From Myxococcota bacterium (GTDB lineage: Bacteria > Myxococcota_A > Polyangia > Polyangiales > Sandaracinaceae), in contig JAYZQJ010000014.1 of NCBI GenBank assembly GCA_036149055.1, positions 32,001 to 96,000 of the forward strand: 64,000 bases of DNA. Direction: 5' to 3'. A program made the position numbers and the translations under genes. Numbering within the stretch: the stretch's first letter is position 1; the number at the start of each line of letters is the position of its first letter. This document shows positions 3,117 to 7,419 of the stretch, piece after piece. The notes under the pieces were generated by a model that was given only the letters and a program-made list of their open reading frames with translations, was not told the origin of the DNA and did no database searches.

Positions 3117-3845
3117 TCAGGGCTGGATGCGGCGGGTGCCGGCGGGGGGGCGCCAGCGGAAGGCGCTCTCGGGCACGTCGCGGTTGAGCTGCTGCTCGAG
3201 GAAGTCGAAGCGGTTCACGTTGTTCGACGAGTCCACGATCATGATCCGGTGCACGACGCCGCGGCGCGACGCGTCGTCGTCGACGAAGAGCAGGATGCGC
3301 GAGTAGTGGGGCGTCGGGCGGCGGCTCCGCAGCTCGAGGACCTGGCCCTCGGAGTAGCCGAGGCGCGAGGCGTCGAGGAGACGGAAGCGGAAGTTCTCGT
3401 CGAGGCGGCCGGTGCCGGTGAGGAAGCTGAGCGCCGCGGGGAGCTGCGCGTCGCTGATCGGCTGCTGGTAGTACTGCCCGCGCTGCTGCCCCGGATCCGG
3501 CGGCTCGAAGACGGTGAGCTGCTGCCCGTCGCTGACCACGATCTTCCCGTTGGGCTCCTCGTAGTCGAAGCGCATCATGCCCGGCTTGCGGAAGCGCACC
3601 CGGCCGCGGCTCACGTCCGTCCGGTCGTAGACCCGGTTGCGGTACCGCTGCACGAAGCGAGCGCTCATCGTGCGGGTCTGGTCGTAGAAGGTCTGAACCC
3701 ACGACGCGACCTCGGCCGCGCTGGGGCGAGACTGCGCCTCGGCCGGCTCGCTGGCGCCGGCGCCGAGGAAGGCGAGGCCGCCCGCGAGGGTGAGCGCGGC
3801 CGCCCGGAGCATCGTTCGAGGGGACTTCATCATCGTTCTCCGCAT
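3117..3845 (-). CDS. lolA: Outer-membrane lipoprotein carrier LolA family
   Basis: Signal peptide, then ARFVQ, KPGMMRFDY, VSDG motifs and C-terminal F.W.PP.G; start could be 3833 or 3830. Confidence 0.85.
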   Translation of the reverse strand: MRRTMMKSPRTMLRAAALTLAGGLAFLGAGASEPAEAQSRPSAAEVASWVQTFYDQTRTMSARFVQRYRNRVYDRTDVSRGRVRFRKPGMMRFDYEEPNGKIVVSDGQQLTVFEPPDPGQQRGQYYQQPISDAQLPAALSFLTGTGRLDENFRFRLLDASRLGYSEGQVLELRSRRPTPHYSRILLFVDDDASRRGVVHRIMIVDSSNNVNRFDFLEQQLNRDVPESAFRWRPPAGTRRIQP

Positions 3846-4128
3846 GGACTGACCGGCCTTGTCCTTCATTCAGCCGAGGCCCGCAAGTGGGCCGCGCAAC
3901 ACCCGCCGACGCGGCGCTGTTCCCGCCGGGGGCCAGCGCTCCGTCCTGCCCCATCCCGCGTCCGTGACCCCCGTGGGGCGATGTTGATCAGCCGTCACGT
4001 CCCGGCTACGATGAGGCCGTCTCGGGTCATCGGGCTCGGGTCTTCGGCTTAGGCTTTCCTTGACACTCAGTTTCTGTTCACCGTGCCTCTCGAGAGGAGA
4101 GGGGCAGCGGTCATTGGACGGAGGTTCC

Positions 4129-4329
4129 ATGAGCAGGTCTCAGCGCCGAATCGAAAGCAACAAGAACATCTCCCGGCTGGAAAAGCGCCACAAGCAGCTG
4201 AAAGCTGAGGTCGCGGAGTATGAATCGAGGCTGGGGCTCAACCCTGAGGAACAGGTCAGACTACAGAGGCTGAAGAAGGAGAAGCTAGCGACGAAGGACG
4301 AGCTGAGTCGGATCTCGTCCGTACCGTAG
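4129..4329 (+). CDS. Small basic coiled-coil protein, DUF465/YdcH family
   Basis: GGAGGT RBS at 4120-4125; L..RH..L...V and RLKKEKL..KDEL pattern; own terminator. Confidence 0.85.
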   Translation: MSRSQRRIESNKNISRLEKRHKQLKAEVAEYESRLGLNPEEQVRLQRLKKEKLATKDELSRISSVP

Positions 4330-4347
4330 CCCTCCCATGACGCGATG

Positions 4348-4380
4348 ACGGCAGAGGTTCTCCTCTGCCGTTTTTCTTTT
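4348..4380 (+). terminator. Intrinsic terminator after DUF465 gene
   Basis: ACGGCAGAGG-TTCT-CCTCTGCCGT 10-bp stem followed by TTTTCTTTT. Confidence 0.85.
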
Positions 4381-4398: not shown

Positions 4399-4851
4399 TC
4401 AGGCGTCCGGAGCGGCTTCGTCCGTGGAGGGCTCCTCCGCGGGCGCCTCGCCCCCGGCCGTCTCCTCCTCGACCGCTCCCGCCTCGGGCGGGCGGTGGCT
4501 CATGCCGCGCGGCGTGAGCTCCACCAGGGTCCGGTCCATGATCTGGCGCCACTCCGGCCGCAGCCCCGCGCCCTGATCGCCGGCGACCTCGCGCGCCACC
4601 GCCAGGTAGTGCAGCGCGTCGAGGCGATGCCCGAGGCGATACTCGGTCATGCCGCGCAGGTAGTAGTACCGAGCGCGCATCTCGAGGTCCATCGTGGGCG
4701 CGTCGTCCTCGAGGTCACGAAGCCAGATCAGCGTGTCCTCGTAGCGCGCCTGCTCGTAGGTGGCCTCGGCGCGCTGCATGTCGTCGCTGATCGCCGCGCA
4801 GCCGGTCGCGCCGATCGCGAGCGCCAGCACCGCCCAGTTGAACCGCTTCAT
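4399..4851 (-). CDS. TPR-like lipoprotein
   Basis: MKRFNWAVLALAIGATG-C lipobox; helical repeat YYYLRGMTEYRLG; TACGCT -10-like box 7 nt upstream of ATG. Confidence 0.8.
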   Translation of the reverse strand: MKRFNWAVLALAIGATGCAAISDDMQRAEATYEQARYEDTLIWLRDLEDDAPTMDLEMRARYYYLRGMTEYRLGHRLDALHYLAVAREVAGDQGAGLRPEWRQIMDRTLVELTPRGMSHRPPEAGAVEEETAGGEAPAEEPSTDEAAPDA

Positions 4852-5010
4852 GCGGCCGAGCGTATCAGAGCCCCGCCGCCGCCGGAATGTAAGGCGACCG
4901 TGGGGCGTCTCCCCCATGGCGGTCGCGCGAGCGCGAGGTTACCCTGATCGGGAAGTCGCGCTTCACTCGATGCCTTCAGGCGGAAGAGGCGCGGCCGTTC
5001 GGATCGAGCA

Positions 5011-5048
5011 GAAAAAGGAACGCCCGGCGAGCTGCAACTCGCCGGGCG
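5011..5048 (-). terminator. Intrinsic terminator of candidate sRNA
   Basis: Minus strand CGCCCGGCGAG-TTGCAG-CTCGCCGGGCG (11-bp perfect stem) then TTCCTTTTTC. Confidence 0.85.
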
Positions 5049-5352
5049 AAAGACCCGGTCACCCGGGAAGATTCTGCGAAGTCAGGCTGTCGAGAAAAAA
5101 GTAAGCAACCAAGCCGGAAGCAAGTAGATAAGGAAGCTCGTCAGCTGGCCGCGGCTCCCTCGACGAATCGAGGTTGCGATCGAAGCGGACAGCCCAAGAA
5201 AGAAAGCGAAGCTGGAATGGAGCCCGACGGGGTCAAACGGCCGGTCTCCGAAGCTTCGGCTCGAAAGCCGAGAAGCTGTTAAGCGAAGAAGCTCTGGTTG
5301 GCAAGCAAAGGGCAGTAGGAAGCGGTCGGGGTTCGCCTCGGCCGCTTTCTGC
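5011..5352 (-). ncRNA. Candidate ~340-nt sigma54-dependent small RNA with repeated GCUU motifs
   Basis: Bounded by -24/-12 promoter and terminator; no credible CDS; at least 5 hairpins including two UUCG loops and one GUGA (GNRA) loop on the minus strand; 14 GCUU copies. Confidence 0.7.
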
Positions 5353-5362
5353 GTTCGTATGA

Positions 5363-5378
5363 AGCAATCGCGGTGCCA
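5363..5378 (-). promoter_or_regulatory. Sigma54 (RpoN) -24/-12 promoter
   Basis: Minus strand TGGCACCGCGATTGCT matches TGGCAC-N5-TTGCW; predicted TSS near 5352. Confidence 0.85.
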
Positions 5379-5406
5379 GCGAGGCCTCTGAAGGGGCCTC
5401 GGCGAA

Positions 5407-5419
5407 AAACCCAATGATT
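5407..5419 (-). promoter_or_regulatory. IHF-like site between enhancer and sigma54 promoter
   Basis: Minus strand AATCATTGGGTTT versus consensus WATCAA-N4-TTR (2 mismatches), at about -55 to -67. Confidence 0.5.
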
Positions 5420-5472
5420 CTCAGATCGGCGCCCCGAGCCCATCCCGAACCGGCCGCGTCACCGCCTGCGCA

Positions 5473-5492
5473 CCATGACATCGGTGTCATGG
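5473..5492. promoter_or_regulatory. Palindrome, candidate upstream activator sequence for an enhancer-binding protein
   Basis: CCATGACA-TCGG-TGTCATGG perfect 8-bp inverted repeat centred about 130 bp upstream of the predicted TSS. Confidence 0.6.
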
Positions 5493-5506
5493 GGGGCCGA
5501 ACGCGA

Positions 5507-5538
5507 ACGGGGCCCGGCGACGGATCGCCGAGCCCCGT
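5507..5538 (-). terminator. Hairpin after S8 peptidase gene (terminator-like, weak U tract)
   Basis: Minus strand ACGGGGCTCGGCGA-TCCG-TCGCCGGGCCCCGT, about 30 nt after the stop. Confidence 0.55.
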
Positions 5539-5565
5539 GGGCTGAAGTCGGGTCAGACGACCGGG

Positions 5566-7419
5566 TTACCGGGCTTTACGCGCCACCACCGCGGCGAGCC
5601 CCAGGGCCCCGAGCGCGTTGAGCAGCAGCCACGGGCCGATCATCGCCTCGGGCAGGAGCGCGAAGCGGAGGGTCGGCCAGAGCGCCTCGACCGCCATGAA
5701 CGCCGCGCTGCCGATCCCGAGCCCGACGAGCAGCGGGCGGAGGCGCTTCACGTGGTAGCCGAGGGCCACCGCGCCGAGCGTCGGCAGCGCGCTGACGAGG
5801 AGCAGCGCGCCCCACGCGCCCAGCGGAGAGGCGGCCGCGCCCAGCGCGCCGAGCGAGAGGAGCCCGCCCAGCCCGCCGAGGCCGGCGAGCGCCCAGGGGA
5901 GCGCGCCGAGCCCGCCGGCGCCGACCACCGCGAACGCCGCCGTCCCGGCCGGGGCGACGCCGAGCGCCTGCTTGCGGCGCAGGCCGAGCAGCACGAGCAG
6001 CGAGAGCCCGAGCGCCGCGGCGCCGCGGGCCAGGCCGCCCTCCTGCGTCGCCTTCGACAGCGCCGCCGGCGCCTGCACCAGGCCGGAGCCATACCGGTGG
6101 GCGTCGCCGAGGTCGTCGGCGCTCTGCTTCAGGATGCGCTCGACCGAGTCGGGATCGGTCACGCCGTTGGCGTAGAGGAGCGCGGCCACGCCGGCGACGT
6201 GCGGGGCGGCCATCGAGGTGCCCTGCCAGGCGAGGTAGTCGAAGCGCGCGGTGTCGCCGCGGACCATCGTGTTCTGCAGCACGCCGTCCGGCATGCCGTC
6301 GCCGTTCTGGTCGACCCGGAGGTCACCGCCCGGCGCGACCACGTCGAGCCCGGTGCCGTAGCAGGAGTAGAAGGTGAGCTCGCGGTCGTAGCGGACCGCG
6401 CCCACCGCGACGACGTGGTTGGCGCGCGCCGGGTACTCGACCCGGCTGCGGCTCGAGTTGCCGGCCGCCGCGACCACCAGCACGCCCTTGCCGTGCGCGT
6501 AGTCGATGGCGCGCTGCACGGCGCGCGACGGCATGCCCCCGCCGAGCGACATGTTGATGACGTGGGCCCCGTGGTCGGCGGCGTAGCGGATGGCGGCCGC
6601 GATGCCGCCCCAGCCGCCGGTGCCGTTCCGGTCGAGCACCTTCAGCGGCATGATGGTCGCCTCGGGCGCGACGCCGGCGACGCCGACGCCGTTGTGGGTG
6701 CTCTGGGCCACCGTGCCGGCGACGTGGGTGCCGTGCCCGTGCTCGTCGTCGGGGTGCGCGTCGCCGTCGACGAAGTCGTAGCCTTCGGCGAAGCGGGTCT
6801 GGCCGAGGTCGGGCGCGAGGTGGAAGCCCCCCTCCTCGCGGTGGGCGACGCCGGTGTCGATCACCGCGACCACGACGCCGGCGCCTCGCGACATCGTCCA
6901 CGCCCGAGGCATGCCGATCTGGTCGAGGTGCCACTGGTGCGGGTAGTAGGGGTCGTTCGGCACGAAGCGGTCGGGATCGTCGGAGGGCGCCGGGGCCTGC
7001 CCGGTCGGGCGGACGTAGGCGGCGGCGTCCGGGAGCGACCAGCGGCGCTCGACCTCGACCACCTCGACGTCGGGGTCGTCCGAGAGCGCTCGGATCACGT
7101 CGTCGATCTCGCTGAGCGGCGGCTCGATCCGGAAGAGGTTGGCCTCGTCGCTCAGCTCGTCGCCGAGCGCGGCCTCGCCGGCCGGCCAGCGGAAAGGCGC
7201 AATCGCGCGCACGATCCGGGCGGCGGCGTCCGCGTGGTCCGCGTCGCTGGCGCCGTCGTCGAGGTCGACGAGCACCGCGCCGGTCGGCGGATCCACCGGC
7301 CCGGAGAGCGGGGCGGCCGAGGTGACGAGGCCGTCACCGGTCCGCGCGGTCACGGAGAAGATCACCATGACGAGGAAGGCCGCACCGAAGAGGCCGAGGA
7401 TCCACAGATGTCGCTTCAA
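5566..7419 (-). CDS. Membrane-anchored S8 (subtilase) serine peptidase
   Basis: Catalytic triad motifs VIDTG, HGHGTHVAG, GTSMAAPHVAG; N-terminal TM/signal and several C-terminal TM helices; TTG start. Confidence 0.93.
   Translation of the reverse strand: MKRHLWILGLFGAAFLVMVIFSVTARTGDGLVTSAAPLSGPVDPPTGAVLVDLDDGASDADHADAAARIVRAIAPFRWPAGEAALGDELSDEANLFRIEPPLSEIDDVIRALSDDPDVEVVEVERRWSLPDAAAYVRPTGQAPAPSDDPDRFVPNDPYYPHQWHLDQIGMPRAWTMSRGAGVVVAVIDTGVAHREEGGFHLAPDLGQTRFAEGYDFVDGDAHPDDEHGHGTHVAGTVAQSTHNGVGVAGVAPEATIMPLKVLDRNGTGGWGGIAAAIRYAADHGAHVINMSLGGGMPSRAVQRAIDYAHGKGVLVVAAAGNSSRSRVEYPARANHVVAVGAVRYDRELTFYSCYGTGLDVVAPGGDLRVDQNGDGMPDGVLQNTMVRGDTARFDYLAWQGTSMAAPHVAGVAALLYANGVTDPDSVERILKQSADDLGDAHRYGSGLVQAPAALSKATQEGGLARGAAALGLSLLVLLGLRRKQALGVAPAGTAAFAVVGAGGLGALPWALAGLGGLGGLLSLGALGAAASPLGAWGALLLVSALPTLGAVALGYHVKRLRPLLVGLGIGSAAFMAVEALWPTLRFALLPEAMIGPWLLLNALGALGLAAVVARKAR

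Follow-up and report, generated by a model that had tools for sequence, protein, structure and literature searches.

The window analysed here is a stretch of 64,000 nucleotides from a Myxococcota bacterium of the Sandaracinaceae (contig JAYZQJ010000014.1, positions 32,001 to 96,000). Positions 5352 to 5011 of its minus strand, between the genes of an S8 peptidase and a small lipoprotein, carry a predicted non-coding RNA, and we put the probability that this is an independent, conserved sigma-54-driven small RNA (sRNA) gene of an undescribed family at roughly 90%. The initial annotation, made from the sequence, had proposed a sigma-54-driven, terminator-bounded sRNA on this strand, and comparative data, covariation, promoter architecture and metatranscriptome contigs bear it out. 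To our knowledge, few sRNAs are known in Myxococcota, Pxr being the only well-studied one. From upstream to downstream, the element consists of the following parts (positions are those of the window; G001 is a relative of the same genus; MFE, minimum free energy; EBP, enhancer-binding protein; UAS, upstream activating sequence).

5474..5491, no strand: palindrome CATGACACCGATGTCATG, presumed EBP site (UAS)
5403..5420, minus: conserved GAATCATTGGGTTTTTCG element lying between UAS and promoter, a possible site of IHF-like bending, nearly identical in G001
5363..5378, minus: sigma-54 promoter TGGCACCGCGATTGCT (TGGCAC-N5-TTGCT, -24/-12) with GG/GC spacing, letter-identical in G001
5011..5352, minus: predicted non-coding RNA of about 340 nt, between sigma-54 promoter and terminator
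5321..5347, minus: 5'-terminal hairpin, from RNAalifold covariation in 9 related RNAs
5103..5323, minus: GCUU/GCUUC-rich, pyrimidine-rich body with 14 GCUU, 8 GCUUC and 11 CUUC
5251..5277, minus: UUCG-loop hairpin 1 (GGCU-UUCG-AGCC), read from the sequence
5196..5212, minus: core GCUUCGCUUUCUUUCUU, the best-conserved single-stranded stretch, 3' of a hairpin
5158..5173, minus: UUCG-loop hairpin 2 (CCUCGA-UUCG-UCGAGG), in the MFE fold
5054..5067, minus: CCCGG-GUGA-CCGGG hairpin, from sequence and MFE fold, stem kept in G001
5011..5048, minus: intrinsic terminator, a 12-bp stem (5048-5021) followed by U-rich TTCCTTTTTC to 5011

The element differs from its surroundings in composition, as had been noticed at the outset: GC content is 0.575-0.605 in 200-nt windows across 5000-5399 and 0.70-0.835 in flanking-gene windows on both sides. 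The 342-nt RNA contains 13% A, and a string search finds no ATG, GGAGG or AGGAG within it, in agreement with the earlier statement that no credible coding sequence lies here. Its MFE fold has a z score of -3.3, and none of 100 shuffles was as stable. The hairpins first proposed (one at the 5' end, two with UUCG loops and one with a GUGA loop) can all be read in the sequence, as can the terminator with its U tract at 5048-5011, in whose stem we count 12 bp.

The 5' hairpin gives evidence of a conserved fold. RNAalifold on the 9 related RNAs gives it 11 pairs, 7 of which are altered on both sides, with 91.7% of cells paired; slid controls pair in 30-55% of cells, and the covariation score was matched by none of 500 shuffles. 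The hairpin is not universal, being predicted at z < -1.5 in 17 of 55 sequences. UUCG-loop hairpin 1 shows by eye a G-C to U-A change in G001, where the stem sequence of hairpin 2 differs around an unchanged UUCG centre. The core GCUUCGCUUUCUUUCUU is identical in G001 and, by eye, near-identical in four other genera, and at the related loci a terminator-like hairpin ends the RNA.

The family appears to be new, as the initial annotation had suggested. None of the models in Rfam 15 scores at or above its gathering threshold; the best in the element, ctRNA_pGA1 (31.3 bits vs 45), spans only the GNRA hairpin and the terminator, and 10 related loci gave no Rfam match at E<=0.01. The full-text searches made brought up no description of such an RNA, nor of any other sRNA in Polyangiales or Sandaracinaceae.

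The regulatory region can be read almost as a textbook sigma-54 enhancer. The near-consensus promoter reported at 5378-5363 is present, with GG and GC spaced as in sigma-54 promoters, and the strict form TGGCAC-N5-TTGC[AT] occurs at just 10 sites in the 9.9-Mb assembly. In 55 distinct loci the pattern GGCAN-N5-[CTG]TGC is kept, with GG at -24, GC at -12 and fixed spacing. Of the palindrome upstream, the form ATGACA-N4-TGTCAT has a single copy in the genome, at this locus, and the looser TGACA-N4-TGTCA has two. Its distance from the -24 element in the 55 sequences falls into the classes 67-69, 79-80, 90-92, 99-104, 111-114, 122-127 and 132-138 bp, with a best period of 11.15 bp (R = 0.77); taken over the 28 distinct distances, the period is 11.2 bp (R = 0.65), and none of 2000 random sets was as periodic. 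A face-of-the-helix requirement between EBP and sigma-54 holoenzyme is established for sigma-54 promoters, and distance steps of about 11 bp are what it predicts. AATCATT-like words, which may resemble the IHF consensus, lie between UAS and promoter in 9 related loci by eye.

The genome encodes one copy of rpoN, 66 Sigma54_activat (EBP) genes and 5 genes of the HU/IHF family. In this genome the RNA has no EBP gene next to it, the nearest being about 50 kb away, and no Sigma54_activat domain was found among 70 upstream open reading frames (ORFs) of 35 loci. At two loci of one genus (g3; L030, L031) the main palindrome is preceded, at a distance of about 50 nt, by a weaker one, GCTGACATTGGTGTCAAG, a hint at a second activator site.

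A DNA similarity search of 61 relatives recovered only the copy in G001 (79% identity, 369 nt), the other matches being terminator-sized fragments. In G001 the promoter is unchanged in every letter, and the GAATCATTGGG element upstream of it is kept, as are core, GNRA hairpin and terminator; the variable blocks of this copy hold compensatory changes in the 5' hairpin and a stem rewritten around the common UUCG centre, and the indels between the two genomes are of 1-3 nt. Because sequence search fails beyond the genus, we used the neighbouring lipoprotein gene as a synteny anchor. The genes around the element are as follows.

3117-3869, minus: LolA
4060-4329, plus: DUF465, with a terminator at 4347-4372
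4399-4851, minus: small lipoprotein of 150 amino acids (ATG at 4851), weak TPR match, called from lipobox and conservation; constant neighbour
4864-4859, minus: -10-like TACGCT of the lipoprotein gene
5566-7419, minus: S8 peptidase
from 7139, plus: cNMP-binding protein

The initial annotation had offered the lolA-DUF465-S8 locus as the anchor, a choice that had to be given up, the constant neighbour being the lipoprotein gene at 4399-4851. The ORF directly upstream varies: among 35 loci it encodes an S8 peptidase in 16 and a cNMP-binding protein in 4, and the rest are ArgJ, RcpC, NUDIX, TPR or unassigned. The block of cNMP-binding protein, S8 peptidase, RNA and lipoprotein recurs in loci L047-L088. 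A weak SorY-like Rfam match at 4297-4377 is essentially the DUF465 terminator.

The module that recurs at these anchors begins with a GACA-N4-TGTC palindrome, followed by a sigma-54 promoter; then comes an A-poor, CU-rich body that carries CUUCGCUU repeats, and a terminator closes it. Of 32 family genomes (Sandaracinaceae by record title), 30 carry the lipoprotein gene, and upstream of it the palindrome followed by GGCAN-N5-[CTG]TGC was found in 28 of the 30 loci, both misses being contig ends. These upstream regions contain 7-25 GCTT against 0-6 AAGC in 29 of 30; the most distant locus, L046, has 21 against 13. From promoter to terminator-like hairpin, the family RNA bodies (leaving out L046, which was mis-called) measure 148-714 nt and contain 7-14% A, 26-38% C and 24-35% U. 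Among 42 loci from public metagenome-assembled genomes (MAGs), titled mostly Sandaracinaceae, Sandaracinus, Polyangiales or Myxococcota and many of them from the same genomes as the family set, 36 have palindrome and promoter (30 at 50-130 bp, 6 at 134-138 bp); the remainder comprises 2 truncated loci, 3 with no more than a sigma-54 match and 1 with a palindrome only.

Across the order, the lipoprotein gene occurs in 108 of 151 sampled genomes. The initial annotation had suggested looking for the element in relatives, and beside its 28 family occurrences the module is found at 20 of 30 loci from other families (18 in tandem, 2 inverted). The other ten comprise one with a palindrome only, one truncated (f17) and eight with nothing. 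With these queries, the module was not found beside the lipoprotein gene in f18 (0/5), f11 (0/2), f6 (0/1) and one f7 locus. Elsewhere in 5 such module-less genomes, TGACA-N4-TGTCA stands without an adjacent sigma-54 site or GCUU-rich stretch. Outside the order the anchor is missing, with 1 weak match in 81 genomes, and the range of the RNA was therefore probed within the order. In total, 55 distinct promoter-plus-RNA sequences under 14 family labels were collected; one locus of each count comes from G023, on which none of the conclusions rests and which was excluded from alignment A3.

Repetition of a short motif dominates the body of the RNA. GCUU (AAGC on the plus strand) occurs at 5103, 5111, 5118, 5134, 5183, 5204, 5209, 5251, 5265, 5273, 5281, 5289, 5303 and 5320, exactly where the initial annotation had placed its 14 copies. 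Dinucleotide-preserving shuffles of the 342-nt RNA contain 5.5±1.9, and none of 5000 reaches 14; from the genome-wide GCTT density of 0.0023 per nt-strand, about 0.5 would be expected per 220 nt. GCUU as the repeat unit stood as to its enrichment and gave way as to its length, since the words most enriched across orthologues are CUUCG, GCUUCG and CUUCGC. In 29 pooled family RNAs, GCUU is observed 330 times against a dinucleotide-shuffle expectation of 148 (z = 21), CUUCG 259 against 81 and CUUCGC 144 against 33, and in 16 of the 29 the GCUU count is reached by at most 1 of 500 shuffles.

In the wider set of 55 distinct RNAs, GCUUC occurs in 54, UUCGCUU in 44 where 4.0 would be expected, and CUUCGCUU in 39 where 1.4 would be. 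Per 450 nt, the median count of GCUU is 10 (range 4-23) and that of AAGC is 0, and GCUU is the commoner of the two in 55/55. The commonest GCUU-to-GCUU spacing is 5 nt, which yields GCUUCGCUU, and by eye the best-kept module of the family is a hairpin followed by GCUUCGCUU(U/C)CUUUCUU. Motif-bearing units are duplicated in tandem in a lineage-specific manner, with periods that include 5, 9, 12, 14, 16 and 20. A recurrent GCUUGCCCGGCAUG word is also found in the RNA bodies of several families.

Neither BLAST nor GCTT density revealed a paralogue in the genome itself. The locus is the second densest of 11 genome windows with at least 9 GCTT per 220 nt; the other ten were considered as paralogues and rejected by eye, being GC-rich GCTTCGG(N)CTCG-type repeats in long open frames. 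These ten tracts, most of them of that type, lie on contigs C227, C6, C84, C4, C252, C230, C40, C258, C164 and C155 of the genome (G000), and probably represent linkers of low complexity, acidic or of Ala/Glu/Ser/Pro type, read on either strand.

The stretch, or a near-identical one (searched as 4400-5600), is present in runs from 12 studies, mostly marine, whose labels are seawater, marine and invertebrate-gut metagenomes plus some libraries labelled by organism; in marine samples, the bacterium or its close strains therefore appear to be widespread. Two runs from two studies, X19 and X20, gave short contigs at the locus.

5078-5338: X19 contig, depth 27.5
4891-5091: X19 contig past the terminator, depth 2.8
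4065-4236: X19 contig on DUF465, depth 3.4
5017-5221: X20 contig, depth 39.6
5192-5324: X20 contig, depth 26.1
4019-4286: X20 contig on DUF465, depth 37.9
5658-5874: X20 contig on the S8 gene, depth 4.45

Together, the contigs on the element cover 5017-5338, and they end within 6-28 nt of the predicted ends of the RNA. Neither X19 nor X20 has a contig on the lipoprotein gene, and uncovered stretches are not evidence of silence. We regard these RNA-library contigs as supporting evidence for transcription, not as proof.

Several observations set the RNA apart from its neighbour. A TAnnnT box lies 12-16 nt before the lipoprotein ATG in 24 of 27 loci (2.4% expected), without a Shine-Dalgarno sequence, and the three loci lacking it look like wrong start picks; to judge by these signals, the lipoprotein gene seems to have a promoter of its own and a leaderless mRNA, a layout that is conserved. 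A CATTCC word often stands just upstream of the box. In two f17 genomes the RNA gene has the opposite orientation: it diverges from the lipoprotein gene, and the gene that follows it is another one. The RNA thus has its own terminator, a neighbour with its own promoter, and a linkage to that neighbour that is not bound to one orientation.

It follows from the -10 box of the lipoprotein gene and from the two inversions that the RNA is not a leader, and we consider it very improbable that it is a cis-acting leader, attenuator or promoter-occlusion device for that gene, in which the sigma-54 transcript would reach the gene whenever the terminator was overridden, with the GCUUC repeats binding an antiterminator. 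Such a role would agree with the low-depth X19 contig that runs past the terminator to 4891 and with the common orientation of the two genes in all family loci and 18 of 20 other-family loci; the RNA also adjoins the lipoprotein gene at every locus found, but that gene served as the search anchor. An upstream read-through transcript, however, could not be used by a gene laid out as leaderless with its own promoter, as 24 of 27 are; a strong terminator is retained at all loci, and no alternative antiterminator pairing was seen in the fold. Still harder to credit is that the region is non-functional (a pyrimidine-rich low-complexity spacer or a decayed repeat) or encodes a small protein on either strand. 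GCTTCGG-type low-complexity repeats are indeed common in the genome, and both strands have long open frames running through the region, but the whole architecture is kept over 55 distinct sequences with a helically phased UAS, base changes are compensatory, the RNA has no ATG, neither indels nor tandem units are multiples of 3, and the X19 and X20 RNA contigs at this locus are confined to the element.

With an independent sRNA gene as the most probable reading, a course of events can be proposed. An EBP on the unique palindrome at 5491-5474 would activate RNA polymerase-sigma-54 at 5378-5363 from the correct helix face, probably aided by DNA bending at the AATCATT element. Transcription would start near 5352 and stop at the intrinsic terminator, and the product would act in trans. 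Its A-poor, CU-rich body, with many copies of GCUUC and CUUCGCUU, could serve as a sponge, a multivalent platform on which a factor with affinity for single-stranded, pyrimidine-rich RNA would be titrated. The titrated factor would most likely be a protein, for example of RRM or cold-shock type, following the logic of CsrB and CrcZ with a different motif. We favour this mechanism tentatively, at somewhat less than even odds, because of the multiplicity of the motif, its variable copy number and its expansion by tandem duplication, as in other sponges, and the loss of other sequence similarity: BLAST-level likeness vanishes beyond the genus, whereas the motif persists. The initial annotation had thought of a decoy or multi-seed regulatory RNA, which the number of repeats and their lineage-specific expansion would fit. 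The genome encodes 5 RRM_1 proteins and 1 CsrA as candidate binders; it is 96% complete and contains no match to Hfq.

A number of points weigh against this reading. No partner was found, and RRM proteins occur in 149 of 151 genomes of the order, so that they do not track the RNA and their co-occurrence is uninformative. Genome-wide, GCUU upstream of Shine-Dalgarno (SD) sites has an observed/expected ratio of 0.99, and hence no regulon of motif-bearing mRNAs is visible. The motif is not enriched in 9 of the 29 family RNAs (at least 30 of 500 shuffles reach the count), including one whole genus. In the RNA of the window, the prediction is that GCUU sites are less open than the remainder (0.33 vs 0.46 unpaired), although in 24 of 29 RNAs of the related loci they come out as modestly more open (0.50 vs 0.43). 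Sigma-54 dependence and EBP binding are likewise predictions drawn from sequence, the RNA-library contigs carry neither strand nor true ends, and two further runs (X15, X16) give long DNA-like contigs over the whole region that are uninformative on transcription.

The conserved 7-8-nt word (UUCGCUU in 44/55, CUUCGCUU in 39/55) could equally be a base-pairing seed, and the same sRNA gene may then act by pairing with several mRNAs and blocking their translation, which we regard as possible and somewhat less likely than titration. Here the CU-rich words CUUC, CCUUC and CUUUCUUUCUU would bind to ribosome-binding sites rich in purines (GAAG, or GGAG with a single G-U), in the manner of the C-rich, Hfq-independent sRNAs of Gram-positive bacteria, and for an Hfq-independent sRNA the missing Hfq gene is as expected. 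The 11-mer AAGAAAGAAAG occurs at only 3 genome sites, one of them within a 14-nt stretch that is perfectly complementary to the core and occupies -20 to -7 of a Pyrid_ox_like gene of the general-stress type; this site is loosely kept in the orthologue of G001 but not in others. A crude duplex-energy ranking of 2389 start regions gave the same distribution as the reversed RNA (mean -55.3 vs -55.0) and was thus uninformative, and seed-type sRNAs seldom show such variation in copy number, tandem expansion or lengths of up to about 700 nt. The Pyrid_ox_like gene lies on the minus strand of contig C122 (L089, 666-1151), with the 14-nt core complement AAGAAAGAAAGCGA at 1157-1170 of L089.

A DUF2330 gene carries the CGCUUUCUUUCUU word, in the same sense as the RNA, in a hairpin loop of its 5' untranslated region, the complement being the third AAGAAAGAAAG site. 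Such a shared word would fit a shared binder. This leader of a secreted-protein gene lies on contig C172 (L090, about 1003-1060, minus), and its loop CUUUCUUUCUU is the core word of the RNA. Across the family the gene has a sigma-54-like promoter (TGGCAC-N5-xTGC). GCUU is found at most 40 nt before the SD sequence in 7 of the 10 closest DUF2330 orthologues, which are not independent of one another, against 12% of start regions genome-wide; the motif was noticed after the fact.

If the titration of a pyrimidine-binding factor is taken further, the RNA might be the sponge arm of an unrecognised global post-transcriptional system of polyangial myxobacteria, an idea that we consider speculative, with odds clearly below even. 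An abundant pyrimidine-binding regulator, such as a bacterial RRM protein, would then read GCUUC/CUUUCUU in mRNA leaders, that of DUF2330 for example, and would be titrated once one dedicated sigma-54 activator switched the RNA on: an axis like that of CsrA and CsrB, in which motif, protein and signal would all be new.

Whatever the mechanism, the element offers several points of entry. The RNA is conserved across at least 14 sampled families of the order and is seen in marine metatranscriptomes. Its unique palindrome is a handle on one of 66 orphan EBPs and on the signal of that EBP, and its GCUUC repeat a handle on the partner, which, if a protein, would make a new sponge/regulator pair. The apparently leaderless lipoprotein gene, being conserved, marks the place of the RNA in new genomes, in which a search by sequence would miss it.

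We compared the RNA with CrcZ/CrcY, with CsrB/RsmY/RsmZ and with three further sRNA systems: GlmY/GlmZ of Enterobacteriaceae (PMC3045617, PMC4152352), Pxr of Myxococcus xanthus (PMC5568312, PMC10217877) and Qrr of Vibrio (PMC10162802). It has no Rfam match to CrcZ/CrcY, CsrB/RsmY/RsmZ or GlmY/GlmZ. CrcZ and CrcY of Pseudomonas depend on sigma-54 and CbrB, and their single-stranded motifs titrate an RNA-binding regulator (Hfq/Crc). They share with our RNA a sigma-54 promoter with an upstream EBP site (here predicted from the DNA), a size in the range of hundreds of nt and a short motif present several times, but they belong to another phylum, Hfq was not found here, and their A-rich AAnAAnAA motif occurs 0 times in the RNA. 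CsrB, RsmY and RsmZ are alike in their repeated short motif with species-varying copy number, poor conservation and terminator, and unlike in not being sigma-54 dependent. Their GGA/ANGGA motifs are nearly lacking from the 342-nt RNA (GGA 2, A.GGA 1); a CsrA gene is present in this genome, but the RNA is without CsrA sites. The initial annotation had judged the motif to match neither CsrB/RsmZ nor CrcZ, and these counts agree.

GlmY and GlmZ have a sigma-54 promoter, upstream sites for the EBP GlrR, and IHF, and GlmY sequesters RapZ. They resemble our RNA as sRNA genes with a sigma-54 promoter and upstream EBP sites, but they have one structured binding module where it has a repeat array, and the sequences are unrelated. 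Pxr is about 100 nt long, with three stem-loops and no CU repeat array, and is known from another suborder; it is an sRNA of the same phylum reported to be sigma-54 dependent, and its size and three hairpins set it apart from an RNA of 342 nt with a repeat array. No likeness came up with the Rfam models, whose coverage of Pxr was not checked. The Qrr sRNAs are driven by LuxO and sigma-54, are about 100 nt long, act by Hfq-dependent base-pairing and are usually encoded next to luxO. They too rely on a dedicated EBP and a sigma-54 promoter, whereas no EBP gene adjoins our RNA in 35 loci. In outline, then, CrcZ, CsrB and GlmY resemble the RNA by analogy, as inducible RNAs with a dedicated activator that possibly sequester a protein. 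By defining motif and by covariance model it matches none of the three; we regard it as an RNA family of its own, whose repeat motif is new and whose sigma-54 enhancer can be read with unusual ease.

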